DNA from: Sphyrna mokarran
Taxonomy: Eukaryota
NCBI GenBank assembly: GCA_024679065.1
Contig: JAGIQG010000023.1
Location: forward strand, 10,602,001 to 10,666,000
Reading direction: 5' to 3'
Length of the DNA: 64,000 nucleotides
The translations under genes and the position numbers were made by a program. The stretch's first letter is position 1. Each line of letters begins with the position of its first letter. Below are positions 2,335-49,900 of the stretch, one piece after another. Under the pieces are notes generated by a model. That model was not told the origin of the DNA. It searched no databases and saw nothing but the letters and a program-made list of their open reading frames with translations.

Positions 2335-2367
2335 TAATAGCAATTAAAAAGCTGACAATTACTATAG
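2335..2367 (+). pseudogene. Remnant of gene A D4 Ig exon (last ~11 codons plus GT donor)
   Basis: ATAGCAATTAAAAAGCTGACAATTACTATAG|GTAAGG aligns to ~32208-32238. The upstream flank (GAATAGGCCT) aligns to ~31570-31579, so ~630 bp including the acceptor are missing. Confidence 0.85.
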
Positions 2368-3099
2368 GTAAGGACCAATATAAAATTATTATAATTCAAT
2401 CAGTATTGTATACAACTCACAAAACAATAACAATTGGTCAGTGCTGTCCTTCATGTTTTATACAAACCTATCGCACCTCAATCTTGCAGCATATCCGCTT
2501 CTAGTCTTTTCCTCCTCAGTAAGTTTCTCTCCGTTATCCCTAAAAGTACATTCGATATTTGCCATAATTGCATCTTATGATGCAGGTAAACACAGAAACA
2601 TAGGAAATGGGAGCAAGAATAATCCTTCAGAATGCCTCAGAAGCACTAAACAAGACGCAGCAGTGTCTATAAGCCGGACATTTTTAAGATCCTCTATTCA
2701 CCAATCTTAACTGAGTAAGAGTTTTTTGAAACTTACCTGGCACTGCGTTGGCCGTCATGGAGTTTCACTGCTCCATATTCCTCTCTCTCTGCCGCTCTAA
2801 GTGATCTTTGCAACAGCTGAGAGACTTGAACCACCCGCGCCCTGAATCACCCGACCGCATTCCAGCAAGGTCTGAAATCCAACAGGACTGGATTTGAGCT
2901 ATTAAACCCAATTCCATATTGAACAAGTTCCACCTTCGAATAACTCTCTGGGTAAAGAGTTTCGAAAATTTCACTGATACTAATAGTAACCACTCATAAT
3001 AAAAATACGTTGAAACTTTGTGCTATACCTCACAAAATATTGTATTTCCAGCACTATTAGCCCCTTCTGAAACCCCCTCAGAAACCCAGCTTCTCACCT

Positions 3100-3452
3100 A
3101 TTGACTCTGTCTACATTTCCTGCAGCCTTGGAAAAACAGCTAGCGTCATCAAGGACCTTAGGCACCCCGGACATTCTTCCATTTTCTTGCATTGGGAAAA
3201 AGATACAAAACTCTCAGGTCACATGCCAGAAGCCGAATCAAGAACAGCTTCTTCCCAGCTGCCATTAGACTATTAAATGGATCGACCTCATATTAAGCTG
3301 ATCTTTCTCTACTCTCTAGTTATGGCTGTGACACCACATTCTGCACTCTCTCCTTCCCCTCTCTATGAACGGTATGCTTTGTCGGTCTAGTGCACAAGAA
3401 ATAATACATTTCACTGCATGCTAATACATGTGACAATAATATATCAAATCAA
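3100..3452 (+). mobile_element. Rex/Babar- or L2-like LINE 3' end (copy ~32980-33331; minus-strand tail of the same type ~12925-13095)
   Basis: [13 protein letters not shown] motif; tail ACATGTGACAATAA...TCAAATC. Confidence 0.65.
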
Positions 3453-3718
3453 CACCTTCTCCTCAGCTCACTTTTCAATATGTTAGTTAAGGACACAGAA
3501 ATCTATTCAAAAAAAATCACTCTTCATTCATCCTGTATTTGACATGAGGAAACTTAACCAGTCTTCAGAATGAATTAAATCCCTGCCCCCCCCCGACCCG
3601 CCATCCCCTCATTCACAACACCCAGGCTCACTTTCCATAAGTACTGTCTGCTGAAGAGAATTGCGGTGGTTACCAGTTCCTTATTGAATTATTCATTCAT
3701 GTTTATTTGCTACAATAG

Positions 3719-3752
3719 GAAAATCAGAAGTTTCCAACAAGTTTACCTCAAG
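3719..3752 (+). CDS. Gene A stalk micro-exon
   Basis: Identical to 33598-33631. Confidence 0.7.
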
Positions 3753-4250
3753 GTAAGACTGGAATTTGCATTGTATAAATAACAATTGTTGCGCCATTCT
3801 CAATGAAGCCACAGTTGATAAATAATCTTACTTTCCCCTCACATCATGGTGAACAATGCAATATCTTTAAATTACCACAATCCACATAGCGGTAATCTTG
3901 TGCCAGCTTTTACCTCATACTTCTGCTATTGGATTGTCTTCCCATTTAAGACACACAACATCGAAGTCAGGGAGCAAAGTTCTTGCATGTCCTGGCAATA
4001 ATCATTCAGTACAATAATATGTCAGGATTGCATTGCAACTTTCTGCTGACTCCTCCACCAGGCAGTTCCCGTCACCTCGGCCGGATGTTTCATTCATTCA
4101 GGGGATGTGGGCGCTGCTGATATTTTTCCTGTGCACACACAGCCCAATGACTCTTTAATGTGAGTTCCAGTTGAAAATCAGCCCACAGGTTCTACATACT
4201 GTCTGTGCTTTCAATATAATGTTGCACACATTTTGGGAGGTTGAGTATTG

Positions 4251-4590
4251 TCATAGAATCCCTGCAACACAGAAGAGTCCATTCGGCCCATCAAATCAGC
4301 ACCGACTCTCTGCCACGTCCTCACCTCTGCCCGATCCCCCAAAACCCACTCATGTACCATGGGCAATCTGCCTAACCTGCTCATCATTGGACACTCAGGG
4401 GCAATTATAGCCTGGCCAATCCATATAAACTGCATATCTTTGGACTGTGGGAAGAAACCAGAGAACCTGGTGGAAGCCCACGCAGATACAAAAGAATATG
4501 CAGATTCCGCACAGACAGTGATTCAAGCCAGGAATTGAACCCAGGTCCTCGGGGCTGTGAGGCAGCAGTACTAACCATTGTACCACAGTG
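4251..4590 (-). mobile_element. tRNA-derived SINE with CR1-like tail (HE1-like; copy ~34129-34468)
   Basis: Minus strand has A-box TGGTTAGTACTGCTGCC and B-box GGTTCAATTCC; tail ends TTCTATGA. Confidence 0.85.
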
Positions 4591-4664
4591 TTTGTCATAC
4601 AAGTTTATCACATAAACTCTGGGATAAGTTATCTTGTATTAATTATAGCTCCTTGTTTTGTCAG

Positions 4665-4771
4665 AGACGTTCTGTTGGAGATATGGAGGATATTCCGCTG
4701 GCTGATCTTTAGTGCTCTGGCTGCTTGCACTGTTTCAGTCACATGCTATGCACATTTTGCAAAGGCCCCAG
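4665..4771 (+). CDS. Gene A transmembrane exon
   Basis: Identical to 34543-34649; part of ORF 4588..4785. Confidence 0.78.
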
Positions 4772-13706: not shown

Positions 13707-13746
13707 ATGAGGTTCAGCGCGTTGCTGCTCCTCACTTCCATATCAA
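13707..13746 (+). CDS. Gene B exon 1: signal peptide [13 protein letters not shown] (phase 1)
   Basis: Kozak-like GGGACCATG, hydrophobic 13-codon run, donor A|GTAAGA; phase matches the first Ig exon (A+TT = Ile). Confidence 0.85.
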
Positions 13747-15900: not shown

Positions 15901-15933
<33 letters not shown>

Positions 15934-18900
15934 TACATACCATTCACACACTATTCATATACACACACATGAACATACTTACCCACACACATAACACTCA
16001 GAACAGACAGACATGCATGCGCATAGACACACAACCACATACACACACACACATTCACCTACCCTCACACAAATACATGCACACACACTCATACACACAT
16101 ATATATACATACACATGCACACACACCCAAATAAAAATGTGAACACACATATATACACATTCTCACACAAACACACACATGCACACACACTCACACACAC
16201 ATCTACATAAATACATACACACACACCAGCACACACATTCNNNNNNNNNNNNNNNNNNNNNNNNNNNNNNNNNNNNNNNNNNNNNNNNNNNNNNNNNNNN
16301 NNNNNNNNNNNNNNNNNNNNNNNNNNNNNNNNNNNNNNNNNNNNNNNNNNNNNNNNNNNNNNNNNNNNNNNNNNNNNNATGGCATTCATGTACATGCACA
16401 CATACACGCACACATTCACATAAACACATGGGCGCACACACACAATCACACACACACAAACACATAAAAACACACACACATGCGCATACATACATACACA
16501 CACATGCATACAGACATACACACACACAAGCACACGTGCAAACACGTGCGCACACATGTGCAAGCACACACACATACAGATGCGCACATGCACATACACA
16601 CACAGACACTCATACGCATGCGTGCGCACACACACATACACACGTGCGCTCATATGCATGCGCACATGCAGACACACACATACTCACATAAACACACACA
16701 TGCATACACATGCATGCACGTACACACTGACACATATGAGCATACACACTCACATACACATGCACACACACATACATGCATACATGCACAGCATTCACAT
16801 ACACAAGCGCACACACACACATAACCACTCACACAAACTCACACACACTAATACACACACAAACAGATACACACAAACAGTCACATGCGTGCAAACACAC
16901 ATGCCTCTCTCGCTCCCATACAGACACACACAGTCTCACTCCCAAGGGCACACACCCTCTCAATCCCTCACACAGAAATGCAAGCACACTCTCTCATTCC
17001 CTTACACATAGGCCCTCACTTATTCTCAATCTCCTTCTCTCACACACACACACACATACACATACACACTCACACATTCTCCCTCTCTCTCTCTCTCTCT
17101 CCCTCTCACAAAAACACTATCCTTCTCTCACTCCCACACACACTCACTCACAGATACGGGGCTCTGCTCAACACAGTCTCATTCCTGAGCCTTGTGGCAA
17201 GTTCTCCTCCCCAGGACTTCCTCACCCTTGTCCCCAGGCCCAGTTTGGAGGTGCTGGAGTTGAATTCCATGCACTCTGACAGTAACACCCCACTGGTGGA
17301 AGGGCAGGTTGAGAGGCAGTTGTGGGACTCTTGGGATTTTAAATATGAATATTAATTATAAAAATGAGGAGTTACATTAAACCTTTACTGCTCACTTGTT
17401 AGGTCTCTGCTGGAGTATTGGGTACTCCAATAATGAGGATATAAAAAGGGGAGGCACAGCGGCACAATGATTAACACTGCTGCCTCACAGTGCCAGGGAC
17501 CTGGGTTTGATTCCTGGTTTGAGTCACTGTCTGTGTGGCATCTGCACGTTCTCCCTGTATCTACGTGGGTTTCCTCAAGGCGCTCCGTCCCACAGGCTGA
17601 AAATCTTTCTGGTTAGATGCATTCTCCCTCAGTATCCCTGAACAGGTTCCGTTGTGTGGCAACGAGGGTATTTTCACACCAACTTCATTGCAGTGTTCAT
17701 GTAAGTCTATTTGTGACTAATGAATAAACTTTACAATTCTGGGCACCACACTCGAGGAAGGAGGTTAAGGCCCTGGCAAGGGCACAGAGCAGATTTACCA
17801 GGATGGTGCCAGGGATTAGGGAATTTGGTTATGTGAACAGATTGGAGAAACTGGGATTCTTGTCCTTGGAAAAGAGCAGATTAAAGGGAAATCTAATCAA
17901 TATATTGAAAATGAGGAAGCGATTGGACATGTGTTTGGAGGGGACTAATGTGCATGGTTGTTAGGGAAGCTGGGCCTTGGGATTCAATTGACCAATAAAT
18001 TTCAATGAGCTGGCACAGACATGACAGGCTGAATGTCCTCCATCTCTGCTTTAAGATTCTTGATTCCAGTCCCACCCAGGACTTGTGTGTGTCCCCTTGT
18101 GAAGCACTGGCAGCATTGCACCAAAAGGATTGTCTACAATTGGGTGTTGGGATATTTCCAGCTTTCTTAAAACGTTATGTTTCACCAACAGTTTTACAGA
18201 CACAAACTGCCTCGATAGAGATGAAAGCTGCAGTGGGACAAACCATCACTGTGGAATGTCCAGGGGCAACACGGTACAAACACCGAGAAATCTGGTGGTG
18301 TAAGAGAACTTCAGCTAATTATTGCAATCTGATATTGAGCACTCATGGAGATAATATAAGGAATGATGGAAGAACATCGATCGTTAATACCAACGGTAAA
18401 ATTTCTGTAACCATAAAACAACTTCAGAAGACAGATACTGGAACATACTGGTGTGGAGTTCAAAATGAAAAAGATTTCAGTGTTTTAGATGTTATAACAC
18501 TGCAGGTTTTCTCAGGTAAGAATATTTCAGAAGATTGATTTTAGCTCTGATAATGTGACCCACTGCAATAACACAGGGCTGCTGCTGTGTGCTGTGTGAA
18601 CTCAGATTAATAAAATATCACAACTCCTCATGTACAAGTAGTGACTTCACATATTCCCATTTCTATCCATTTCCATTAACCTATTTCTGCATCCTTTCCA
18701 TCTATATTCTTACAAACCAAAAATCATATTCCACCCAAGGCTCTTTCATTGATTCTTTCATGCGATGAGAGTTTCTGGAACAGCAATTATTGAACATCCC
18801 TAATTATCCTGAATTGCCTTCTTGAATCACTACAGCTCATGAAGTGTACGTACACCCACAGTGATGTTAGGGAGGGAGTTCTGGGATTAAGCCAGTGACA

Positions 18901-21900
18901 GTGAAGGAACGGAGATAGATTCCCCAGTCTGGATGGTGTGTGTTTTGGAAGGAAGCTTGTCAGTGGTGATTGTCCCATGCACCCAATTCTCTCCTTCTAG
19001 GTGTTAGATGTCGCAGGTTTGGAAGGAGATTTAATTCATTGCTTTCTATCTCCATAGTAACTTGTAATAGATCGAGGGTGACTTAATGTGGCTTGAATCA
19101 ATAAATGTTTTATTGCCAACAATAGCCCATGCTTGCCTTCATCGGACTGGGTGTTGAGACGAAAAATTGGCAAATTATGTTACAGTTGTTTAAAACATTG
19201 GTTAGGCCACATTTTGAATATTGTGTCCAATTCTGGTTACCACACCATCAGAAGGATGTGGTGGCTTTGGAGAGAGTGCAGAAGAAGTTTACCAGCTTGT
19301 TGCCTGGTATGGAAGGTATTAGCGATGAGGAGAGATTGAATAAACTGGGATTGTTCTCACTGGAAATACACAGGCTGAGATGAACTAGTAGAAATTTATA
19401 AAATTATGACAGGTATAGATAAGAACATTTGGACTATTTCCCAGGGCAGAAAGGACAATTACAAGTGAGCACAAGTTCAAGGGGGGGAAGGTTCAGTGGA
19501 GATGTGCGGGGGAAGTTTTTTCACATTGGGGATGATGGGGGCCTGGAATACACTACCAAGTGAGATGATTGAGGCAATTACTTTAGTCGCATATAAGACG
19601 TATATCGATAGACACAGGAACAAACAGGGAATACAGGGTTATAAACGGTTGGTTTAGAGAGGCAAATATGAACAGCGCAGGCTTGGAGGGCCAAAGGGCC
19701 TGTTCATGTGCTTACCGTTCTTTGTTCTTTGTAATAAGAATATATATATCTATACAACAAGGTCAGAATGAATTACAATGTGAATCTACTATTCGGCTCC
19801 ATGGCTCCAACTGCAAAACATTCCTCAACCCGTGATGCACACCCTCTTGCCGATTGGCTCAGCTTCCAGCCTTGAGAATCCACAGGGCCTGACCTGACCA
19901 CATAACCCTCTAAACACTCCCCTACCCCAATTAAAGGACCACAATCCTTCCCCCTAAAATCTGAAATACAACAATGGAGGAATAAAGAACAGGAAAACTC
20001 AACAAAAATTTAAATCAGTCTGGAGGAATCCGGTCTCTGGTAGAGCTCCTCAATTCAGTGGTTTGCTCTCCTAAGCTTAAAGGGCCAGACGGGACAGACA
20101 AAAAGGCGGATTCATTAATCCAGGATCTGGTGGATCTTCAGCAGCTTCTGGTTCCTCAGTTTCCACAGCCAGCGGTTGCTGCGCTCCCACATTCTCCACC
20201 AAAATCTCAGTAACCAACCCCGGCAAAGTTTAACCAACTGCAGCGGGTGTCTGTTGATCCTCTGTGTCCATCACTCTCTTCTCCTTCAATGGTTTACCTG
20301 CTTCCTGAGCCGACAGCCTTGTATCTCCACAATGTCGGAGAACAGTCCTGTTCTCTTCATCAGCCACCCAGAACGGTATAAAATTTGGAAACAGGACTGC
20401 ATCCCCCACTTGAAATACAGTTTCCTTTTCTCGAATTACTGTTTTCCTTCTGAACGACTACCCAAGCCTGCATGCTCCCTGCTAAATTTGGGAATATCAT
20501 GTCCAATTGTGTTCTGAACTGGAATCCCATCTGCAACTCTGCTGGAGTCACCTCTGTGATCGTGTTTGGGGTACTGTTATAAGACAACAAAAAACTGTCC
20601 ATATATAAAGGAAGAGGATAATTTATTTGTTTTTTTATTGATGACTTGAATGTTTGTACCTCACGCTCCACTGGTCCATTTGAGGCTGAGTGGGAAGGTG
20701 TTGACCTCACATGGTGAATGCCATTAGGCTCCAGGAATTTTTGGAATTCTTCCACAGTGAATGGTGTGCCATTGTCCGACACAACCACTTCCGGAATGCC
20801 ATGGATAGCAGAGAATTTCCACACTCTATCAATTGTGCCCATGGTTGTTGGGGACTTCATCAACTGCACATCCAACCACAACTAATATAAGAAACATGTG
20901 ACCCCGAAATGGCCCGGGCAAAATCTACATTTAACTTCCACCAAGCTTGACCAGGCCATTCCCAATGATGCAAATTCACCTGTGATGGTAAAGCCCATTG
21001 ATCTTCGTAACTCGGGCATTGACGAACCATCTGTTCTGTTTCCTTGCCAATGCCTGGTGAAAACACATTTGCCTGGGGCCTTCATTCTACTTTGACCTGG
21101 AAAAGAGTGAGGCAGTTCTTGTAACAGGAATTAAAGATAAAGTCACAAGTAGGCTTACATTCACGCTGCAATGGAGTTACTATGAAAATCCCCTGGTTGC
21201 CACAATGCAGCACCTATTTGGGGACACAGAGAGAATTTAGCGTGGCCAATTCACCTAACCAGCACATCTTTGGAGTGTAGAAGGAAACCGGAGCACTTGG
21301 AGGAAACCCACACAGACACGGGAAGAACATGCAGACACGGCACAAACAGTGACCCAAGCTGGGAATCAAACCTTGATCCCTGACACTGTGACGCAGCAGT
21401 GCTAACCATTGTGCCACCGTACTTTCCTGGAGTCATCTCCCCAGGAGTGGTACAAGAAAGTCTAGCCACCTGCAGCGACACCCCATCTTCACAGGGTATC
21501 TCCATCCTTCTGCTTTGGTCGGGTTTGAGCTACTCTGACTTATATCACCATTTTTGCATTACCGTCTTCTTCACTTTTGACCACATCGGATCTATTTTTC
21601 TCCACAGTTTTATATGTTTTGCCAAGACTGGCAAGTTCCCTACCAGATACAGAGCCAGTATAATCTCTTGTGGAACCGGTGGTGGTGCGACTGTTTGCGG
21701 TAAAGACATCGGCTAATTGTGTCTGCTCGGGATATCTGCATTCCAGGGTGATGCTGAAACGTATAACTGTACGCTGCAAACAAAGGAGCCCATCTCTGCA
21801 TCCCTGCGGAGGCAATTAGAGGCACCGGCTTCTCTAAATAGACCTAACAATGGCTTCTCATCTGAAACTATTGTAAAATGTCACCCATAAATGATCACCT

Positions 21901-24900
21901 AGTTTTCCTCGTCTATTTGGGAGTATTCCGTTTCCACATTTGATCACGTCCCTCTCTCACATCCACACTCTCCCTCTCATTCTCTCTCCCTCTCACTCTC
22001 CTCCAAATCCTCTCTCTCCACACACTCTCTCCTCTTTCTCTCTCTCTCCTCTTTCTCTCTCTCTCACTCACTCTCTCCCTCATACACACTCTCTCTCACT
22101 CTCACACACACTCACTCACAGATACAGGGCTCTGCTCAATAGAGTCTCATTCCTGGGCCTTGTAGTCAGCTCTCTTCCCCAGGGCCTCCTCACACTTGTC
22201 CCCAGGGCCAGTTTGGAGACGCTAGAGTTGGGTTCCGATGCATTTTGACAGCAACACCACCCAGTGGAAGGATAGGTTGAGAGGCAGGGATTCTTGGGGA
22301 TGGCACGATGTCACAGTGGTTAGCACTGCTGTCTCACAGAACCAGGGACCTGTGTTCAATTCCTGGCTTGGGTCACTGTCTGTCTGGAGTCTGCACATTC
22401 TCCCCGTGTTTGCGTGGGTTTCCTCTGGGTGCTCCGGTTTGCTCCCACAGACTGAAAGGTGTGCTGCTTCAGTGTATTGGCCATCCTAAATTCTCCTGTG
22501 TACCTGAACAGGCGCTGGAGTGTGGCAACTAGGGGATTTCCACAGTAGCTTCAATGAGGTGTTAAGTTAAGCCTAATTCTGACAACATGATAAATAAATA
22601 AATAAATAAAATCGGAGTATTAATTAGAGATTTGAGGAGTTCCACTGAACTTTTACTAAGCACTGATTAGGTCTCTGCTGGAATACTGGGTTCAATCTGG
22701 GCACCACACTCGAGAAAGGAGGTTAAGGCCCTGCCAAGGGCACAGAGCAGATTCTCCAGGATGGTGCCAGGGATGAGGGAGTTTGGTTATGTGAACAGAT
22801 TGGAGAAACTGTGATTATTGTCCTTGGAACAGAGCAGATTAAGGGGAAATCTAATCGATGGATTGAAAATGAGGAAGAGATTTAAAAGACAGTTGGATAT
22901 GTGTTTGGAGGGGACCAACATGCAGGGTTGTGGGGGACGTTGGGCTGTGGGATTCAATTGGACAATAAATTTCAATGAGCTAGCACAGACATGACAGGCC
23001 AAATGTCCTCCATCTCTGCTTTAAGATTCTTGATTCCAGTCCCACCCAGGGCTTGTGTGTGTCCCCTTGTGAAGCACTGGCAGCATTGCACCAAAAGGAT
23101 TGTCTATAATTGGGTGTTGGGATATCTCCAGCTTTCTTAAAACATTATGTTTCACCAACAGTTTTACAGACACAAGCTGCCTCGATAGTGATGAAAGCTG
23201 CAGTGGGAGAAACCATCACTGTGGAATGTCCACAGACAACACAGTACCAATACCTTGAAATCTGGGGGTGTAAGCAAACTTCAGAAACTTATTGCAATCA
23301 TATATTGAGAACTTATGGAGTCAGAGTCAAGAATGTTGATGCAAGAACATCGATCGCTAATACCAACGATAAAATTTCCATAATCATACAACGACTTCAG
23401 GAGACAGATACAGGAACATACTGGTGTGGAGTTCGACATGAAAACTCTCTCCATGTTTTTGATGTTATAACACTGAAGGTTTTCTCAGGTAAGAATATTT
23501 CAGAAGATTGATTTTAGCTCTGATAATGTGATCCAGCTGCAATAACACAGGGCTGCTGCTGTGTGCTGTGTGAACTCAGATTAATAAAATATCACAACTT
23601 CTCATGTACAAGTAGTGACTTCCCATATTCCCATTTCTATCCATTTCCATTAACCTATTTGCAAATCCTTTCCGTTTATATTCTTACAAACCAAAAATCA
23701 TATTCCACCCAAGGCTCCTCTGTTGATTCTTTCATGTGATGTGAATGTCTGGAACAGCAATTACTGAACATCCCTAATTATCCTTGACCTGCCTTCTTGA
23801 ATCACTACAGCTCATGAAGTGTACGTACATCCACATTGCTGTTAGGGAGGGAGTTCCAGAATTGAACCAGTGTTAGTGAAGGAACGGCGATATATTCCCC
23901 AGTCTGGATGGTGTGTGTTTTGGAGGGAAGCGTGTCAGTGGTGGCGTTCCCATGCATCCGCTTCTCTCCTCCTCCTAATTCCTCTTCCTTTAATTCATTG
24001 CTTTCTATCTCCATAGTAACTTGAAATAGCTCAAGAGCCGCTCAATGTGGCTTGAATCAATAAAGGCTTTATTTCCGACAATATGGCATGCTTGCCTTCA
24101 TTAAACTGACTATCAAGTATTAAAGTTGGCAAATTATGTTACAGTTATATAAAATATTAGTTAGGCCACATTTAGAACGCTGTGTCCAATTTTGGTGACC
24201 ACAAAACCAGAAGGATGTGGAGACTATGGACAAAGTGTGGAAAAGGTTTACCAGGATGTTGCCGGGTATGGACGGTACTAGCTATGAGGAGAGATTGAAT
24301 AAACTGGGATTGTTCTCCCTGGAAAGATGGAGGCTGAGGGACGGCCTGGTAGAAGTTTATAAAATTATGAGCATATAGATCGGGTGAACAGTTGAAAGCT
24401 TTTTCCCAGGACAGAAAGGACAATTACAAGAGGGCACAAGTTCAAGATATGGGGGGAAAGGTTCAATGGAAATATGCAGGGGAAGTTTTTTATACAGGGG
24501 GTGGTGGAGATCTGCAATTCATTGTAAATGAGGTGGTTGAGGCACATTTAAGACTTATATTGATAAGCTTACGAACAAACAGGGAATAGAGGGAGAGAAG
24601 CAATGGGTCTAGATAGGTAAAGATGATTGGCAAAGGCATGGAAGGGCCGAAGGGCCTGTTCCTGTGCTGAACTGTTCTTTGTCCTTTATAATTAAGAAAT
24701 TATATACACACAACAGGGTCAGACTGAATTACATTGCAAATCTAACACTCAGCTCCCTGGCTCCAATTGCAAGACATTCTCAACCCCTGGTACCCTCTTA
24801 CCCATTTGTTCAGCTTCCAGTCTTGAGAATCCACACAGCCTGATACAATCACATGACCTCGTATACACTCTCCCACCCCAATTAAAGGGCCACAATCCTT

Positions 24901-27900
24901 CCCCCTAAATCTGAAGTACAATTACGGAGGAATAAAGAACAGAATTAGTGTTTTAACTGAAAAGAGTAAGAGAAATGGAAAGCCCATTAAAGGTTTAATC
25001 AGTCTGGAAGAATCCGATCTCTGGTAGAGTGCCTCAGTTCAGGGGTTTGCTCTGTTAAGTTTAAAGGACCAGACAGGATAGACGAGAAAGGCAGACTCAA
25101 TAATCCAGGATCTGGTGGATCTTTAGCAGCTTCTGGTTCCTCAGTCTCCACAGCCACGTGCTGCGCTCCCACGTTCTCCAGCAAAATCCCAGTAACCAAC
25201 TCCGGCAAAGTTCAACCAACTGCAGGGAGCGCCTGATGATCCTCTGTGTCCATCACTCTCTCCTCCTTCGATGGTCCACCTGCTTCCTGAGCCGACAGCC
25301 TTGTATCTCCACAACTTTACCAGCCACTCAGGAACAGGCCTGGTGTAAAATTTGGAAACAAGACTGCATCCCCGCTTAAAACACTCTGTTTCCTTTTCTC
25401 CTTCTGAAAGACTAGCCTAGCCTGCACACTCTCTGCAAAATTTCGGAATATCATATCCAGTTGTGTTCTTAACTGGCATCGCATCAGCATCTCCACTGGA
25501 ATAACCCCTGTGCTCACGTTTGGGGTGATGTTATAAGACAACAAAAAACTGTCCATACGTAAAGGTAGAGGACAGTTTATTTGTTTTTTTATTGATGGCT
25601 AGCATGTTTGTACCACAGACTCTACTGGTTCATCTGAGGCTGGGTGGGAAGGTGTTGACCTCACATCAACATTAGGCTCCAGGAACTTTTGGAATTCTTC
25701 CACAGTGAATGATGTGCCATTGTCTGACACAACCACTTCCAGAATGCCATGGATAGCAGAGAATTTCCACACTCTATCAATGGTGCCCATGGTTGTTGGG
25801 GACTTCATCAACTGCACATCCAACCACAACTAATATAAGAAACATATGACACAGAAATGGCCCGGCAAAATCTACATTTAACTTCCACCAAGGTTGACCA
25901 GGCCATTCCCAATTATGCAAACTCACCTGTGATGGTAAAACCCATTGATCTTCGTAACTCGGGCATTGATGAACCATCCGTTCTATTTCTTTGCCAATGC
26001 CTGGTGAAAACACATATGCCTGGGGCCCTCATTCTACTTTGACCTGGATGAGAGTGGTGTAGTCCTTCTAACAGGAATTAAAGTTAAAGTCACAAGTAGT
26101 TACATTCGCACTGCAGTGGAGTTACTATGAAAATCCTCTAATTGCCACAATCCAGCGCCTGTTTGGGTACACTGAGAGACAATTTAGCGTGGGCAATTCA
26201 CCTAACCAGCACATCTTTGGAGTGTAGAAGGAAACCGGAGCACCTGGAGGAAACCCACACAGACACGGGAAGAACATGCAGATATGACACAGGCCGGGAA
26301 TCGAACCCTGGTCTCTGACACTGTGACGTAGCAGTGCTAACCACTGTGCCACCATACCTTCCTGGAGTCATCTCCCCAGGAGTGGTGCAAGAAATTCTAG
26401 CCACCTGCAGCAACACCCCATCTTCACAGGGTATCTCCATCCTTCTACTTTGGTAGGGTTTGAGCTCCTCTGACTTATATCACCACTTTTGCGTTACCGT
26501 CTTCTTCACTTTTGACCACACCGGATCTATTTTTCTCTACTGTTTTATATGTTTTGCCAAGACTGGCAAGGACTCTACCAGATGCAGATATTAATCTCTT
26601 GTAGAACCGGTGGTGCGACTGTTTGTGGCAATGACAACGGCTAATTGCGTCTGCTCGGGATATCTGCATTCCAGGGTGATGCTGAAACGTATAACTGTAC
26701 GCTGCAAACAAAGGAGTCCATCTCTGCATCCCTGCGGAGGCAATTAGTGGCACCGGATTCTCCAAATAGCCTTAACAATGGCTTCTCATCTGAAACTATT
26801 GTAAAATGTCACCCATAAATGATCACCTAGTTTTCCTCATCTATCTGGTAGTATTCCGTTTCCACATTTGATCATGTCCTTCTCTCACACACACTCTCCG
26901 TCTCCCTCTCTCTCCCTCTCACTCTCCTCCAAATCCTCTCCCTCCACATACAATGCACACACACTCTCTCTCTTTCTCTCTCTCTCACTCACTCTCTCCC
27001 TCATACACACTCTCTCTCACTCCCACACTCACTCACAGATACAGGGCTCTGCTCAACACAGTCTCATTCCTGGGCCTGGAGCAGCTCTACACCGCAGGCT
27101 CTCCTCTCATGCTTGTCCCCAGGCCCAGTTTGGAGATGCTGGAGTTGGGTTCCAATGCACTCTGACAGCAAAACCCCACTGGTAGAAGGGCAGGTTGAGA
27201 GGCAGTTGTGGGATTCTTGGGGATGGCACAATGTCACAGTGTTAGTGCTGCTGTCTCACAGCACCAGAGGCCTGGGTTGAATTCCTGGCTTGAGTCACTC
27301 TCTGTGTGGAGTCTGCACATTCTCCCTGTATCTGTGTGGGTTTCCTCTGGGTGCTCTGGTTTCCTCCCACAGACTGAAGGACATGCTGGTTCAATGCATT
27401 GGCCATCCTAAATTCTCCCTCAGTGTACCTGAACAGGCGCTGGAATGTGACGACTACGGGATTTCCACATTAGCTTCATTGCGATGTTAATGTAAGCCCA
27501 CTTCTGACAGTAAGATAAATAAATAAATAAAATTGGAGTATTAATTAGAGAGATTTGGTCTCTGCTGGAGTACTGGGTTCAATTCTGATCATCACACTCA
27601 AGGAAGGAGGTTAAGGCTTTGGCAAGGGCACAGAGCAGATTTACCAGGATGGTGCTTGTAATGGGGGATTTTGGGTATGTGGACAGATTGGAGAAACTGT
27701 GATTATTGGGCTTGGAACAGAACAGATTAAAGGGAAATCTAATTGATGAATTGAAACTGAGGAAGGGATTTAAAAGGCAGTTGGATATGTGTTTGGAGGG
27801 GACTAATGTGCAAGTTTGTGGGGGAAGTTGGGCTGTGGGATTCAATTGGACAATAAATTTCAATGAGCTAGCACAGACACGACAGGCTGAATGTCCTCCA

Positions 27901-28952
27901 TCTCTGCTTTAAGATTCTTGACTCCAGTCCCACCCAGAACTTGTGTGTGTTCCCTTGTGAAGCACTGGCAGCATTGCACCAAAAGGATTGTCTACAGTTG
28001 GGATAACTCCTGCTTTCTTAAAACGTTATGTTTCACCCACAGTTTTACGGACACAAACTGCCTCGATAGTGATGAAAGCTGCAGTGGGAGAAACCGTCAC
28101 TGTGGAATGTCCACAGGCAACACGGCACAAACAACGAGAAATCTGGTGGTGTAAGGAAACTTCAGATAATAATTGCAATCTGATATCGCGCACTCATGGA
28201 GATAGTATCAGAAATGATGATGGAAGAACATCGATTGTTAATACCGATGGCAAAATTTCTGTAAATATACTACAACTTAAGGAAACCGATACAGGAACAT
28301 ACTGGTGTGAACCTCCATATCAAAACACATCACAGATTTCAGATGTTATATTACTGAAGGTTTTCTCAGGTAAGAATCTTTCAGAAGATTGATTTTAGCT
28401 CTGATAATGTGATCTGGCTGCAATAACACAGGGCAGCTGCTGTGTGAACTCAAATTAATAAAATATCACAACTCCTCGTGCAAATAGTGACCTCCCATAT
28501 TCCCATTCCTATCCATTTCCATTAACCTATTTCTGTATCCTTTCCTTCTTTATTATCTTCCCTTTATACTCTTACAAAGCAAAAATCATATTTATCTAAA
28601 ACCTCTTTTATTCTTTCATTCATGGGATGTGCCTAAAAGACCTTTTATTACCCATCTCTAATTACCCTTCAGAAGGTTGTGGTGAACTGCCTTCTTCAAC
28701 TGCTGCAGCCCATGTGGTGTATGTACACCCACAGTGCTGTTAGAGAGGGAGTTCCAGGACTGAGCCAGTAACAGTGAAGGAACAGGGATAGATTCCCCAG
28801 TCTGGATGGTGTGTGTTTTGGAGGGAAGCTTGTCAGTGGTGATGTTCCCATACACCCACTTCTCTCCTCCTTCTAGATGCTAGATTTGGAAGGAGATTTA
28901 ATTCAAAGCTGCGTGTCTCGAACCAATAAAGGCTTTATTGCCAACAATACAG

Positions 28953-28986
<34 letters not shown>

Positions 28987-31900: not shown

Positions 31901-34794
31901 TTTACCAACAGATAAATGGGACCCAATCCGATCAAACATCAGTGGTGATGTGGGAAATGCCGCCACTATACCGTGTCTGTTCACGGACAGGGAGAAACTC
32001 TATAAGAAATTCTTGTGTAAAGCGACCGCTGTAAATAAATGTATTACTATTGCCAGCTCTGATGGAGTTACAGAGAATCAGAATAATGAGAAAGTTTCAA
32101 TCACTGTTAATAATGCTCATAATTTTACCGTTACCATGACTAACATAGACAAAGACGACAAAGGAGAGTATTGGTGTGGAGCTCAGAATATCAGTGACGT
32201 AAAGATCGTAGCGATTAAAAATCTGACAATTACTAAAGGCAAGGACAAATATACAATTATTATAATTCAATCAGTATTGTATAAAACTCACAAAACAATA
32301 ACAATTGGTCAGTGCTGTCCTTCATGTTTTATACAAGCCTATCAACCTATCGCATCTCAATCTTGCAGCATATCCGCTTCTAGTCTTTTCCTCCTCAGTA
32401 AGTTTCTCTCCATTACCCCTAAACATATATATGATATTTGCCATAATTGCATCTTATGAAGCAGGTAAACACAGAAACATAGGAAATGGGAGCAAGAATA
32501 CTCCTTCAGAATGCCTCAGATTCACTAAACAAGACGCAGCAATGTCTATAAGCCGGACATTTTTAAGATCCTCTATTCACCAATCTTAACTGAGTAAGAG
32601 TTTTTTGAAACTTACCTGGCACTGCGTTGGCCGTCATGGAGTTTCACTGCTCCATATTCCTCTCTCTCTGCCACTCTAAGTGATCTTTGCAACAGCTGAG
32701 AGACTTGAACCACCCGTGCCCTGAATCACCCGACCGCATTCCAGCAAGGTCTGAAATCCAACAGGACTGGATTTGAGCTATTAAACCCAATTCCATATTG
32801 AACAAGTTCCACCTTCGAATAACTCTCTGGGTAAAGAGTTTCGAAAATTTCACTGATACTAATAGTAACCACTCATAATAAAAATACATTGAAACTTTGA
32901 GCTATACCTCACAAAATATTGTATTTCCAGCACTATTAGCCCCTTCTGAAACCCCCTCAGAAACCCAGCTTCTCACCTATTGACTCTGTCTACATTTCCT
33001 GCAGCCTTGGAAAAACAGCTAGCGTCATCAAGGACCTTAGGCACCCCGGACATTCTTCCATTTTCTTGCATTGGGAAAAAGATACAAAACTCTCAGGTCA
33101 CATGCCAGAAGCCGAATCAAGAACAGCTTCTTCCCAGCTGCCATTAGACTATTAAATGGATCGACCTCATATTAAGCTGATCTTTCTCTACTCTCTAGTT
33201 ATGGCTGTGACACCACATTCTGCACTCTCTCCTTCCCCTCTCTATGAACGGTATGCTTTGTCGGTCTAGTGCACAAGAAATAATACATTTCACTGCATGC
33301 TAATACATGTGACGATAATATATCAAATCAACACCTTCTCCTCAGCTCACTTTTCAATATGTTAGTTAAGGACACAGAAATCTATTCAAAAAAAATCACT
33401 CTTCATTCATCCTGTATTTGACATGAGGAAACTTAACCAGTCTTCAGAATGAATTAAATCCCTGCCCCCCCCCGACCCGCCATCCCCTCATTCACAACAC
33501 CCAGGCTCACTTTCCATAAGTACTGTCTGCTGAAGAGAATTGCGGTGGTTACCAGTTCCTTATTGAATTATTCATTCATGTTTATTTGCTACAATAGGAA
33601 AATCAGAAGTTTCCAACAAGTTTACCTCAAGGTAAGACTGGAATTTGCATTGTATAAATAACAATTGTTGCGCCATTCTCAATGAAGCCACAGTTGATAA
33701 ATAATCTTACTTTCCCCTCACATCATGGTGAACAATGCAATATCTTTAAATTACCACAATCCACATAGCGGTAATCTTGTGCCAGCTTTTTTCTCATACT
33801 TCTGCTATTGATTGTCTTCCCATTTAAGACACACAACATCGAAGTCAGGGAGCAAAGTTCTTGCATGTCCTGGCAATAATCATTCAGTACAATACTATGT
33901 CAGGATTGCATTGCAACTTTCTGCTGACTCCTCCACCAGGCAGTTCCCGTCACCTCGGCCGGATGTTTCATTCATTCAGGGGATGTGGGCGCTGCTGATA
34001 TTTTTCCTGTGCACACACAGCCCAATGACTCTTTAATGTGAGTTCCAGTTGAAAATCAGCCCACAGGTTCTACATACTGTCTGTGCTTTCAATATAATGT
34101 TGCACACATTTTGGGAGGTTGAGTATTGTCATAGAATCCCTGCAACACAGAAGAGTCCATTCGGCCCATCAAATCAGCACCGACTCTCTGCCACGTCCTC
34201 ACCTCTGCCCGATCCCCCAAAACCCACTCATGTACCATGGGCAATCTGCCTAACCTGCTCATCATTGGACACTCAGGGGCAATTATAGCCTGGCCAATCC
34301 ATATAAACTGCATATCTTTGGACTGTGGGAAGAAACCAGAGAACCTGGTGGAAGCCCACGCAGATACAAAAGAATATGCAGATTCCGCACAGACAGTGAT
34401 TCAAGCCAGGAATTGAACCCAGGTCCTCGGGGCTGTGAGGCAGCAGTACTAACCACTGTACCACAGTGTTTGTCATACAAGTTTATCACATAAACTCTGG
34501 GATAAGTTATCTTGTATTAATTATAGCTCCTTGTTTTGTCAGAGACGTTCTGTTGGAGATATGGAGGATATTCCGCTGGCTGATCTTTAGTGCTCTGGCT
34601 GCTTGCACTGTTTCAGTCACATGCTATGCACATTTTGCAAAGGCCCCAGGTATAATATTTTAAATCTCTTTCCTCTAATATTTATACATAATTAACTTCA
34701 ACCTAAAAGCTTAGGCATTTTGAAAGCTGCTGAAAAGACACAGCAAAAAACTCCACAAGGAAATGACTCCTCCTCGAGAAATCTAACCCAATGA
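13707..34794 (+). CDS. Gene B: complete multi-exon CD300/pIgR-like (CMRF35/MDIR-like) receptor; leader + 4 V-type Ig domains + stalk + Arg-containing TM + short tail; ~521 aa
   Basis: Exons 13707-13746, 18192-18515, 23162-23488, 28043-28369, 31912-32238, 33598-33631, 34543-34649 and 34715-34794 join in frame (phases 1,1,1,1,1,2,1; 1566 nt including stop). All have AG acceptors and GT donors except one GC donor. Ig domains show C...WxC/FLC-x7-C...DxGxYWC. The last exon is the least certain. Confidence 0.8.
14300..14598 (+). mobile_element. tRNA-derived SINE in intron 1 (copy ~44474-44772)
   Basis: A/B boxes and AATAAATAAACTTT tail. Confidence 0.88.
15290..15840 (+). mobile_element. CR1 LINE 3' end in intron 1 (copy ~45464-46025)
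   Basis: [32 protein letters not shown]. Confidence 0.9.
15845..17150. repeat. Degenerate (CA)n/(CT)n microsatellite tract containing a 138-N gap (16241-16378)
   Basis: Direct inspection; source of the His/Thr and Cys/Val ORFs. Confidence 0.97.
17452..17732 (+). mobile_element. SINE upstream of D1, inserted in an old CR1 fragment (copy ~47618-47898)
   Basis: GGCACAGCGGCACAATGATTAACACTGCTGCC head; interrupts GGGT..CAATTCTGGGCACCACAC. Confidence 0.85.
18192..18515 (+). CDS. Gene B Ig V-domain exon D1 (324 nt)
   Basis: Acceptor ccaacag|, donor TCAG|GTAAGA; encodes TITVEC...[11 protein letters not shown]...DTGTYWCG, with the extra C-C' disulfide typical of CD300/pIgR/TREM domains. Confidence 0.92.
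19125..19732 (+). mobile_element. CR1 LINE 3' end nested in the Gypsy LTR (copies ~24083-24690, 49291-49898, 53895-54500, 59285-59890)
   Basis: [36 protein letters not shown]...[11 protein letters not shown] (CR1 ORF2 C-terminus); TTCTTTG-type tail. Confidence 0.9.
21130..21420 (-). mobile_element. SINE nested in Gypsy pol (copies ~26078-26355, 50965-51090 partial, 56330-56620, 61280-61558)
   Basis: GTCACAAGTAGGCTTACATT tail and GCAGTGCTAACCATTGTGCCACC head on the + strand. Confidence 0.88.
22300..22610 (+). mobile_element. SINE upstream of D2 (same insertion at ~27224-27530, 52094-52400, 57500-57810, 62430-62740)
   Basis: SINE head directly after GGATTCTTGGGGA; (TAAA)n tail. Confidence 0.88.
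23162..23488 (+). CDS. Gene B Ig V-domain exon D2 (327 nt)
   Basis: Same splice sites and phase as D1; TITVEC...[11 protein letters not shown]...DTGTYWCG. Confidence 0.92.
24046..26870 (-). mobile_element. Gypsy remnant, cassette copy (LTR 24046-24894)
   Basis: Homologous to 19087-21935; [16 protein letters not shown] integrase motif. Confidence 0.88.
28043..28369 (+). CDS. Gene B Ig V-domain exon D3 (327 nt)
   Basis: cccacag| acceptor, TCAG|GTAAGA donor; TVTVEC...[11 protein letters not shown]...[10 protein letters not shown]. Confidence 0.9.
28913..29130 (-). mobile_element. Partial Gypsy LTR after D3, without the CR1 insertion
   Basis: CAATAAAGGCTTTATTGCCAACAATA joins directly to the (TA)n/ACAAGGTCAGACTGAATTACAATG segment. 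Confidence 0.75.
31912..32238 (+). CDS. Gene B membrane-proximal Ig V-domain exon D4 (327 nt, divergent type)
   Basis: Polypyrimidine tract + ccaacag|; [11 protein letters not shown]...[13 protein letters not shown]...DKGEYWCG; several N-x-S/T sequons; donor is AAG|GCAAGG (GT in the gene A remnant). Confidence 0.9.
33598..33631 (+). CDS. Gene B 34-nt stalk micro-exon ([11 protein letters not shown])
   Basis: caatag| acceptor and strong AAG|GTAAGA donor; converts phase 1 to phase 2, which is the phase the TM exon needs. Confidence 0.75.
34543..34649 (+). CDS. Gene B transmembrane exon ([36 protein letters not shown])
   Basis: ttgttttgtcag| acceptor in phase 2; hydrophobic helix with Arg near its extracellular end; CAG|GTATAA donor, or read-through GIIF* ending at 34663. 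Confidence 0.8.
34715..34794 (+). CDS. Gene B candidate terminal cytoplasmic exon ([26 protein letters not shown])
   Basis: Phase-1-compatible AG at 34713-34714 (an in-frame alternative AG lies 12 nt downstream), stop at 34792-34794, AATAAA at 34863-34868. The intron would be only 65-77 nt with a weak pyrimidine tract. Confidence 0.45.
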
Positions 34795-43880: not shown

Positions 43881-43920
43881 ATGAGGTTCAGCGCGTTGCT
43901 GCTCCTCACTTCCATATCAA
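43881..43920 (+). CDS. Gene C exon 1: signal peptide [13 protein letters not shown]
   Basis: Identical to 13707-13746. Confidence 0.85.
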
Positions 43921-46900: not shown

Positions 46901-49900
46901 TATGAGCATACACACTCACATACACATGCACACACACATACATGCATACATGCACATCATTCACATACACAAGCGCACACACACACATAACCACTCACAC
47001 AAACTCACACACACTAATACACACACAAACAGATACACACAAACAGTCACATGCGTGCAAACACACATGCCTCTCTCGCTCCCATACAGACACACACAGT
47101 CTCACTCCCAAGGGCACACACCCTCTCAATCCCTCACACAGAAATGCAAGCACACTCTCTCATTCCCTTACACATAGGCCCTCACTTATTCTCAATCTCC
47201 TTCTCTCACACACACACACACATACACATACACACTCACACATTCTCCCTCTCTCTCTCTCTCTCTCCCTCTCACAAAAACACTATCCTTCTCTCACTCC
47301 CACACACACTCACTCACAGATACGGGGCTCTGCTCAACACAGTCTCATTCCTGAGCCTTGTGGCAAGTTCTCCTCCCCAGGACTTCCTCACCCTTGTCCC
47401 CAGGCCCAGTTTGGAGGTGCTGGAGTTGAATTCCATGCACTCTGACAGTAACACCCCACTGGTGGAAGGGCAGGTTGAGAGGCAGTTGTGGGACTCTTGG
47501 GATTTTAAATATGAATATTAATTATAAAAATGAGGAGTTACATTAAACCTTTACTGCTCACTTGTTAGGTCTCTGCTGGAGTATTGGGTACTCCAATAAT
47601 GAGGATATAAAAAGGGGAGGCACAGCGGCACAATGATTAACACTGCTGCCTCACAGTGCCAGGGACCTGGGTTTGATTCCTGGTTTGAGTCACTGTCTGT
47701 GTGGCATCTGCACGTTCTCCCTGTATCTACGTGGGTTTCCTCAAGGCGCTCCGTCCCACAGGCTGAAAATCTTTCTGGTTAGATGCATTCTCCCTCAGTA
47801 TCCCTGAACAGGTTCCGTTGTGTGGCAACGAGGGTATTTTCACACCAACTTCATTGCAGTGTTCATGTAAGTCTATTTGTGACTAATGAATAAACTTTAC
47901 AATTCTGGGCACCACACTCGAGGAAGGAGGTTAAGGCCCTGGCAAGGGCACAGAGCAGATTTACCAGGATGGTGCCAGGGATTAGGGAATTTGGTTATGT
48001 GAACAGATTGGAGAAACTGGGATTCTTGTCCTTGGAAAAGAGCAGATTAAAGGGAAATCTAATCAATATATTGAAAATGAGGAAGCGATTGGACATGTGT
48101 TTGGAGGGGACTAATGTGCATGGTTGTTAGGGAAGCTGGGCCTTGGGATTCAATTGACCAATAAATTTCAATGAGCTGGCACAGACATGACAGGCTGAAT
48201 GTCCTCCATCTCTGCTTTAAGATTCTTGATTCCAGTCCCACCCAGGACTTGTGTGTGTCCCCTTGTGAAGCACTGGCAGCATTGCACCAAAAGGATTGTC
48301 TACAATTGGGTGTTGGGATATTTCCAGCTTTCTTAAAACGTTATGTTTCACCAACAGTTTTACAGACACAAACTGCCTCGATAGAGATGAAAGCTGCAGT
48401 GGGACAAACCATCACTGTGGAATGTCCAGGGGCAACACGGTACAAACACCGAGAAATCTGGTGGTGTAAGAGAACTTCAGCTAATTATTGCAATCTGATA
48501 TTGAGCACTCATGGAGATAATATAAGGAATGATGGAAGAACATCGATCGTTAATACCAACGGTAAAATTTCTGTAACCATAAAACAACTTCAGAAGACAG
48601 ATACTGGAACATACTGGTGTGGAGTTCAAAATGAAAAAGATTTCAGTGTTTTAGATGTTATAACACTGCAGGTTTTCTCAGGTAAGAATATTTCAGAAGA
48701 TTGATTTTAGCTCTGATAATGTGACCCACTGCAATAACACAGGGCTGCTGCTGTGTGCTGTGTGAACTCAGATTAATAAAATATCACAACTCCTCATGTA
48801 CAAGTAGTGACTTCACATATTCCCATTTCTATCCATTTCCATTAACCTATTTCTGCATCCTTTCCATCTATATTCTTACAAACCAAAAATCATATTCCAC
48901 CCAAGGCTCTTTCATTGATTCTTTCATGCGATGAGAGTTTCTGGAACAGCAATTATTGAACATCCCTAATTATCCTGAATTGCCTTCTTGAATCACTACA
49001 GCTCATGAAGTGTACGTACACCCACAGTGATGTTAGGGAGGGAGTTCTGGGATTAAGCCAGTGACAGTGAAGGAACGGAGATAGATTCCCCAGTCTGGAT
49101 GGTGTGTGTTTTGGAAGGAAGCTTGTCAGTGGTGATTGTCCCATGCACCCAATTCTCTCCTTCTAGGTGTTAGATGTCGCAGGTTTGGAAGGAGATTTAA
49201 TTCATTGCTTTCTATCTCCATAGTAACTTGTAATAGATCGAGGGTGACTTAATGTGGCTTGAATCAATAAATGTTTTATTGCCAACAATAGCCCATGCTT
49301 GCCTTCATCGGACTGGGTGTTGAGACGAAAAATTGGCAAATTATGTTACAGTTGTTTAAAACATTGGTTAGGCCACATTTTGAATATTGTGTCCAATTCT
49401 GGTTACCACACCATCAGAAGGATGTGGTGGCTTTGGAGAGAGTGCAGAAGAAGTTTACCAGCTTGTTGCCTGGTATGGAAGGTATTAGCGATGAGGAGAG
49501 ATTGAATAAACTGGGATTGTTCTCACTGGAAATACACAGGCTGAGATGAACTAGTAGAAATTTATAAAATTATGACAGGTATAGATAAGAACATTTGGAC
49601 TATTTCCCAGGGCAGAAAGGACAATTACAAGTGAGCACAAGTTCAAGGGGGGGAAGGTTCAGTGGAGATGTGCGGGGGAAGTTTTTTCACACTGGGGATG
49701 ATGGGGGCCTGGAATACACTACCAAGTGAGATGATTGAGGCAATTACTTTAGTCGCATATAAGACGTATATCGATAGACACAGGAACAAACAGGGAATAC
49801 AGGGTTATAAACGGTTGGTTTAGAGAGGCAAATATGAACAGCGCAGGCTTGGAGGGCCAAAGGGCCTGTTCATGTGCTTACCGTTCTTTGTTCTTTGTAA

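Follow-up and report, generated by a model that had tools for sequence, protein, structure and literature searches.

How does one copy of a tandemly duplicated receptor gene come to have one immunoglobulin (Ig) domain fewer than its near-identical neighbor? The question is raised by a 64,000-nucleotide stretch of the genome of the shark Sphyrna mokarran (GenBank assembly GCA_024679065.1, contig JAGIQG010000023.1, positions 10,602,001 to 10,666,000 of the forward strand), referred to here as the window, which we predict to be a tandem array of ~30-kb genes for pIgR-like/CD300-like receptors. Comparison of the window with itself resolves two blocks, 598-29832 and 29833-64000+, that are mostly 99.1-99.6% identical, and inside both blocks ~5-kb cassettes that are 78-92% alike. 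The predicted layout of the receptors is leader-(D1)n-D2-stalk-transmembrane segment (TM), and the head of each gene is assembled from the ~5-kb intron-exon cassettes, which carry one D1 exon apiece; the gene that we call B has three D1 exons and the gene downstream of it, gene C, has four. We propose that gene B descends from a four-cassette ancestor, that its first two cassettes recombined within a 36-bp tract of perfect identity, and that the exon D1b was thereby lost in frame, an explanation to which, taken as a whole, we assign a probability of roughly 78%.

The evidence that carries this explanation is a single switch in the affinity of gene B. A 36-mer is identical at 20690-20725 in gene B and at 50856-50891 and 55891-55926 in the first and second cassettes of gene C (C1 and C2), and it occurs nowhere else on the + strand of the window; the chance expectation of random 36-mer matches is ~3e-17. 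The corresponding offsets, 30166 and 35201, differ by 5035 bp, the net loss that an initial annotation of this stretch had proposed. The switch is bounded by diagnostic bases, of C1 type at 20689 and of C2 type at 20726: gene B agrees with C1 at 20661, 20666, 20672, 20680 and 20689 and with C2 at 20726, 20732, 20734, 20750 and 20764. That annotation had quoted GCTGAG and ATTAGG as the flanking sequences; the last G of the former and the ATT of the latter fall inside the 36-bp tract, and the rest of its mapping holds. In a three-way comparison of diagnostic sites gene B is of C1 type at 542 of 546 substitution sites to the left of the tract and of C2 type at all 68 to its right, and among indels it sides with C1 at 38/38 on the left and with C2 at 7/8 on the right (one further listed indel was an alignment end and was dropped). 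At the four exceptions on the left (20173, 20261, 20446 and 20546) gene B has the C2 base; cassette 3 matches gene B at three of these and has a gap at the fourth, and we therefore read them as later mutations in C1 rather than as patches of conversion around the junction. The join is clean, with zero inserted or scrambled bases. Gene B also has substitutions of its own on either side of the junction (9 in 4345 columns and 52 in 8099 columns), most of them transitions (7:2 and 35:17), which argues that it is not a copy of gene C.

The switch tells us which of the two genes has changed. Three sequences alone cannot polarize it, and we used cassette 3 of gene C (C3) as the outgroup reference. 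The distance between the first cassette of gene B (B1) and C3 falls from 320/1968 columns (16.3%) on the left side of the junction to 48/590 (8.1%) on the right side (Fisher p 3e-7), the distance between C2 and C3 is 8.4% and 8.1%, respectively (p 0.87), and in trees of five sequences the sister of B1 is C1 on the 1968 left columns and C2 on the 590 right columns. Gene B is thus the recombinant and gene C represents the older state, as had been suggested at the outset. The exon that gene B lacks is itself an old one. D1b has 74% amino-acid identity to its nearest neighbor, D1c, to which it is sister at support 97/91, and genes B and C differ by 61 substitutions in 12444 columns (0.49%), so that D1b is far older than the split between the two genes. 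With the mutation rate of 7e-10 per generation (confidence interval 1.4-14.1e-10) given for the epaulette shark in the accessible part of PMC10587355, that split would be about 3.5 million generations old (1.7-17 million), a figure whose rate comes from another species and that is blurred by conversion.

In agreement with the initial annotation, the segment missing from gene B contains D1b. This is an intact V-set exon, and because all D1 exons are phase 1-1 its loss is in frame. The exon phases of gene B close, and none of its seven exons has an internal stop. Pfam places V-set above its cut-off in 8/8 Ig frames scanned, and 7/7 D1 exons encode four cysteines; a second cysteine pair in V-set domains is a hallmark of pIgR-like/CD300-like receptors. 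We mapped the exons of gene B by aligning the proteins of shark relatives back onto the window, and recognized the leader, the stalk and the single TM segment by homology and exon phases. The predicted product of gene B is leader-D1a-D1c-D1d-D2-stalk-TM, a receptor with four Ig domains and a short tail that has arginines at the start of its predicted TM segment; both long-tail and short-tail paired forms occur in this receptor family, the long tails carrying tyrosine motifs. The product of gene C would probably have five Ig domains, provided that its D2 is present. We also considered whether each cassette might be a separate gene and rejected this, as a hydrophobicity scan and tblastn with the relatives revealed just two leaders, at 13707 and 43881, and just two TM exons, at 4663 and 34541.

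The junction falls within the remains of a retrotransposon. The 36-bp tract lies inside an integrase-core relic, as annotated (Pfam rve, E 3e-06 in gene B and 5e-05 in C1, both under the curated cut-off), and the core has PDB matches to foamy-virus and Ty3 integrases. The nearest long relative of the relic, P0027, is 45% identical and has the order protease-reverse transcriptase (RT)-RNase H-integrase; the RNase H, zinc-finger and core parts of P0027 all have counterparts in the relic, with their order kept, and the protease and RT of the relic were not found in the window. The same order occurs also in retroviruses and BEL elements, and no BEL-type Pfam domain was seen in P0027. The earlier description of the relic as Gypsy-type and dead is fair. 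Each of the five copies has stops, frame changes and insertions, and only an internal fragment is recognizable. All five full-length cassettes (B1, B3, C1, C2 and C3) share the position of the relic, its interrupting repeat, its stops and a gap in RNase H. The relic is therefore one ancestral insertion that was duplicated with the cassette, and its shared position and lesions rule out independent Gypsy insertions.

The tract also lies within a short island of homology between C1 and C2 that is 93% identical, with 10 mismatches, and that is walled on both sides: the left wall, 40 bp from the tract, is a long interspersed nuclear element (LINE) insertion private to C2, which we take to be CR1-like, and the right wall, 71 bp from the tract, is a deletion private to C1. 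Both walls are probably older than the event, since the LINE insertion has acquired frame changes and since the B/C split is a few percent as old as the cassettes. These surroundings bear on the route of repair. As in classical non-allelic homologous recombination (NAHR), the crossover lies at homologous positions of direct duplicates and one unit length (5035 bp) is gone; the window does not contain the reciprocal product, a duplication. The clean homology of classical NAHR is stated as >100 bp in the accessible part of PMC9675761; no uninterrupted homology of such length is found at this junction, where 36 bp are perfect within a walled island of 147 bp. Because the island is short, mismatched and walled, repair by annealing fits better than crossover in a long tract. 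We give an even chance to intrachromatid annealing of short divergent repeats, of the single-strand-annealing type; classical unequal crossover is a possible but weaker candidate, and a replication template switch is weaker still. These routes are inseparable by sequence alone, and the route is the part of our explanation that we infer. Hairpin or cruciform formation at the island was considered and rejected (z-scores -0.06, 1.15, 0.08 and -0.54).

The course of events that we propose is as follows. A Gypsy-type relic in the ancestral cassette would have been copied along with it, and the ancestor of gene B would have had four D1 cassettes, as gene C does. A break somewhere in the 5 kb would then have led to recombination of cassette 1 with cassette 2, resolved in the 36-bp identical tract, and exactly one cassette length, with exon D1b in it, would have been removed, leaving gene B still in frame.

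The initial annotation had spoken of unequal crossover or deletion using the homology of the relic. The deletion in gene B stands, and the special role of the relic is not supported. Some points do favor a Gypsy relic that itself brought the event about, be it by acting as a hotspot or by offering better homology than any other part: identity in the island exceeds that of the cassette pair overall (136/146 vs 86.6%; Fisher p 0.018, chosen post hoc), the integrase part in which the junction lies makes up only 422 of the 4066 aligned C1/C2 columns (10%), and a junction in a long terminal repeat (LTR) relic of the KIR genes is interpreted in this way in the accessible part of PMC2816608. Against this, the relic as a whole is 86.3% identical between C1 and C2, compared with 86.6% overall, and it occupies 962 of the 4066 columns (24%), so that a random junction would fall in it about one time in four. 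The likeness of the island is matched by 13.6% of windows of equal size, its fold is ordinary on 4/4 strands tried (z -0.54 to +1.15), and we have a single event to judge by. Nor is the 36-mer the best homology between the cassettes: 14 of their 469 perfect tracts are at least 36 bp long and 11 exceed that length, the longest having 66 bp, with almost all of them outside the relic, and 18% of the identical C1/C2 bases sit in tracts of at least 36 bp. As the share of the relic, its identity and its tract lengths are all ordinary, a junction within it that is resolved to 36 bp is unremarkable; the relic appears to be a passenger in the homology of the cassettes, and we consider it improbable that it promoted the event. 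A different objection concerns direction. Gene B might have the older state, the 5035 bp in gene C having come from another paralog or through an old duplication: the switch is left unpolarized by three sequences by themselves, gene B is ancestral at both walls (without the LINE insertion and without the 480-bp deletion), and most relatives have fewer D1 domains. Such a gain would make gene B non-recombinant, yet the distance to cassette 3 that halves across the junction is that of gene B. It would also call for a near-identical source of the segment, which is absent within the window (best ~90%), while identity between B and C is 99.4-99.8% right up to both edges of the tract. This alternative is largely disfavored, and we regard it as very unlikely.

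Two further explanations turn on the assembly. The deletion may be real but B and C may be alleles of one gene that the assembly has set in tandem, in which case our mechanism would still apply and the number of domains would be a segregating polymorphism. The two blocks are mostly 0.2-0.6% apart, near the nucleotide diversity of 0.002 given for another shark in the accessible part of PMC10587355, and runs of N that are equal in length and homologous in place are found in both (two runs, each 138 long, in CA-rich tracts upstream of D1a; they leave the offset unchanged and the junction untouched). The boundary between the blocks, near 29833, is however free of N gaps, and since a tail precedes a head within each block there are at least two real tandem genes. 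Old paralogs subject to conversion would fit the patches that differ by 6% (598-2334) and ~11% (15406-16003), as well as the unlike sequence that lies upstream of 598. We therefore find it unlikely that B and C are alleles. The junction might instead be an assembly or library chimera, mis-joined at the 36-bp identical tract, and it does coincide with a perfect repeat, as a mis-join in an assembly graph would. Copies of 30 kb at 99.5% identity are told apart in this assembly, which 36 bp would hardly confuse; no such join arose at longer identical tracts, of which C1 and C2 share one of 66 bp and C2 and C3 one of 180 bp; and gene B has private, transition-rich substitutions on both sides; a mis-join is accordingly very improbable.

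A deletion in gene B thus remains our preferred explanation, and several points weigh against it. Divergence between B and C is unequal across the junction (0.21% left vs 0.64% right, p 6e-4), and 16792-19525 (2734 bp, D1a included) is identical between them, which suggests that conversion is active or that the copies are mosaic; later conversion could have shifted the apparent switch within the island. The distance between C1 and C3 also steps at the junction (16.3% left, 11.9% right, p 0.009), so the outgroup test is blurred by older exchanges. A 1-bp indel at 20793 sides with C1. As C1, C3, B1 and B3 all have a base there, the gap appears to be private to C2, and this indel and the four exceptions on the left are best read as mutations in gene C after B and C parted. 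We infer the age of both walls relative to the event, both indels lying in sequence that gene B has lost. The D2 and TM exons of gene C are expected past the end of the window, and the D2 donor of gene B (32239-32244) reads GCAAGG, vs GTAAGG in the remnant of the upstream copy A; this GC donor may be that of a weak GC-AG intron or a splice mutation. Finally, the analysis covered the assembly sequence only.

Coordinates of the junction, the surrounding repeats and the receptor exons (window positions; a dot marks features listed without a strand)
Feature	Position	Strand	Remarks
Deletion junction, gene B	20690..20725	.	36-bp perfect identity between diagnostic sites 20689 and 20726
Segment in gene C, absent from gene B	50856..55890	.	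5035 bp; placement slides within the 36-bp tract
Chimeric homology island, gene B	20650..20797	.	left part as C cassette 1, right part as cassette 2
Island, C cassette 1	50816..50962	.	147 bp; 136/146 aligned bases equal cassette 2; 36-mer at 50856-50891; ends at a ~480-bp deletion private to cassette 1
Island, C cassette 2	55851..55996	.	36-mer at 55891-55926
Insertion private to cassette 2, left wall of island	55406..55850	+	~445 bp; LINE 3' end, two frame changes
Gypsy-type RNase H-integrase relic, gene B D1a-D1c intron	20360..21949	-	stops, frame changes, ~280-bp repeat (~21137-21420)
Relic copy, C cassette 1	50526..51607	-	
Relic copy, C cassette 2	55126..57149	-	split by LINE insertion
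Relic copy, B cassette 3 (D1c-D1d intron)	25320..26880	-	
Relic copy, C cassette 3	60523..62080	-	
Gene B leader exon	13707..13746	+	phase 1 donor
Gene B exon D1a	18192..18515	+	identical to gene C D1a
Gene B exon D1c	23162..23488	+	
Gene B exon D1d	28043..28369	+	
Gene B exon D2	31912..32238	+	membrane-proximal V domain; donor GC, not GT
Gene B stalk exon	33598..33631	+	34 nt, phase 1-2
Gene B transmembrane exon	34543..34649	+	short-tail type; 81-84% identical to Mustelus P0001/P0006
Gene C leader exon	43881..43920	+	
Gene C exon D1a	48358..48681	+	
Gene C exon D1b	52955..53281	+	intact V-set, 327 nt, phase 1-1, AG/GT sites, four cysteines; the domain gene B is without
Gene C exon D1c	58363..58689	+	
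Gene C exon D1d	63250..63576	+	
Tail of upstream copy A	2335..4771	+	D2 remnant without acceptor; stalk 3719-3752; TM 4665-4771

The array has a history beyond this one junction. Copy A is without ~626 bp (2334-2338 vs 31579-32209) that in gene B comprise the acceptor and most of exon D2; it keeps a ~30-bp D2 remnant with a GT donor, and its stalk and TM exons are intact. This deletion appears to be a second, independent loss of an Ig domain in the array. At the boundary between the blocks (1-597 vs 28792-29832) copy A runs on into a LINE endonuclease frame that gene B is without, and Pfam finds an endonuclease domain in the stretch 3-596, so that the boundary looks to be a truncation within a LINE element. 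No Pfam family matched a further LINE-like stretch at 45442-45756; the LINE-like and repeat pieces are presumably CR1 elements and short interspersed nuclear elements. Traces of exchange are also visible elsewhere: a patch at 15406-16003 vs ~45581-46170 is ~11% diverged within flanks that differ by 0.2-0.3%, and the B and C copies look like mosaics, as expected under gene conversion. Within gene C, cassettes 2 and 3 share a perfect tract of 180 bp (55008-55187 vs 60405-60584) and are otherwise ~92% alike, which suggests recent conversion between them. In the likely last exon of gene B, at ~35805-35830, the stop appears a few codons earlier than in the short-tail forms of Mustelus and Scyliorhinus, or a second acceptor is used.

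The best protein matches of the receptors are shark models named 'polymeric immunoglobulin receptor-like', those of Mustelus asterias first (70-73% for D1b against Mustelus proteins), and the best PDB matches of the Ig domains are pIgR and CD300. In a tree limited to shark and ray sequences (47 domains from 14 of 19 shark/ray proteins and 7 domains from the window), the window D2 groups with Mustelus D2 at 100/99, and window D1 with Mustelus D1 at only 83/88, which by itself would point to a shark probably close to Mustelus as the source. Genes flanking the array are not present in the window. Among the 19 proteins, 13 have the layout D1-D2, three have D1-D1-D2, one has (D1-D2)x3, one has eight domains and one has an extra N-terminal domain; domain number thus appears to be labile in the family. 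The models P0001 and P0002, from Mustelus and Scyliorhinus, have eight and six domains in repeated D1-D2 units; these could be genuine, longer receptors, or the models could have fused tandem genes such as A, B and C.

The D1 exons themselves (those starting at 48358, 52955, 58363 and 63250) are more diverged than their 300-bp flanks in 6/6 pairs, with p<0.01 in four and p of about 0.05 in two; between D1a and D1b, for example, the exon differs at 50/324 positions vs 39/599 in the flanking intron (p 2e-5). This divergence hints that the D1 domains differ in function and that the loss of D1b may therefore matter, and such a loss would alter the reach or the ligand repertoire of the receptor. 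Positive selection on D1 was considered and found no support, pairwise dN/dS being 0.90-1.93 over the six pairs and significant in none (p 0.19-0.87). We note that 3/3 substitutions between B and C in D1c are protein-changing, and that D1b and D1c (52955-53281, 58363-58689 and 23162-23488) have IWGC vs IWWC in D1a and D1d, a shared change beside the second cysteine that we presume may touch the core tryptophan of the V-set domain.

As a mechanism the event is an ordinary one, junctions of tens of base pairs in intronic repeat relics being known from the KIR genes as well as from deletions, by the hundreds, in humans. What it offers is a clean worked example in a cartilaginous fish, in which an Ig domain was lost in frame with known direction, size and junction, and the junction is a ready PCR marker for variation in copy number and domain number. 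It is conceivable, though we think it a long shot, that the array works as a domain accordion, in which selection diversifies symmetric D1 cassettes that come and go without a change of frame, and that forms with three and four D1 domains still segregate as functional variants. The receptor family is more intriguing than the junction. The accessible parts of PMC4016189 and PMC13337447 state that PIGR homologs are absent from cartilaginous fish, and two papers thus describe as absent the family that we find here. We found no paper on this shark receptor family with searches on shark pIgR/CD300 terms, which is weak evidence because most subscription papers lie outside the coverage of those searches. 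A true pIgR binds polymeric Ig that contains J chain and transcytoses it. If these receptors bind shark polymeric Ig, genes B and C would be a natural pair with which to relate domain number to binding, in a group for which reviews call the receptor missing.

Several known systems resemble this one. Closest in sequence are the shark pIgR-like models (Mustelus asterias P0001, P0004 and P0006; Scyliorhinus P0002 and P0016), which have the same leader, D1, D2, stalk and short-tail TM exons; unlike genes B and C, 0/19 of the shark and ray models have three or four D1 domains in a row, although their names are predicted and some long models may fuse neighbors. Like the PIGR/PIGRL genes of zebrafish, the genes of the array are clustered, encode V-type pIgR-like receptors and vary in the number of their Ig domains, which in zebrafish is given as two or three in a paper of 2014 (PMC4016189) or as two to six in a review of 2026 (PMC13337447); the accessible parts of these two sources describe no domain-loss junction.

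The deletion itself resembles human homology-type rearrangements mediated by transposable elements (TEs), which involve copies in direct orientation, leave one chimeric element, have tens of base pairs of identity and lose kilobases: the median junction identity is 17 bp overall and 34 bp for LINE-1, and the median LINE-1 loss is 4.5 kb, in the accessible part of PMC9675761. In gene B both ends of the deletion likewise lie in elements of the same family and orientation, and one chimeric copy is left, joined cleanly at homologous positions with a short perfect identity (36 bp). Unlike in the human cases, the copies are parts of a 4-kb duplicated cassette, so that the element was not the sole homology. 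The event works as a repeat-mediated deletion but falls outside the stricter concept, as we understand it, in which dispersed insertions supply a homology that would otherwise be absent. A close parallel in an immune-receptor cluster is the human KIR2DL1/2DS1 hybrid, whose junction was mapped to 44 bp of an intron, within the relic of an MLT1 LTR element (PMC2816608). Both cases concern tandem Ig-superfamily immune-receptor genes with a short intronic junction interval in an old LTR-element relic common to the duplicated units. As far as the accessible part of the same source goes, the KIR junction lies between two genes, removed >50 kb with whole genes and made a hybrid, whereas the junction in gene B lies between cassettes of one gene, in a Gypsy-type coding relic, and removed 5 kb and one in-frame domain from a shark V-set receptor.

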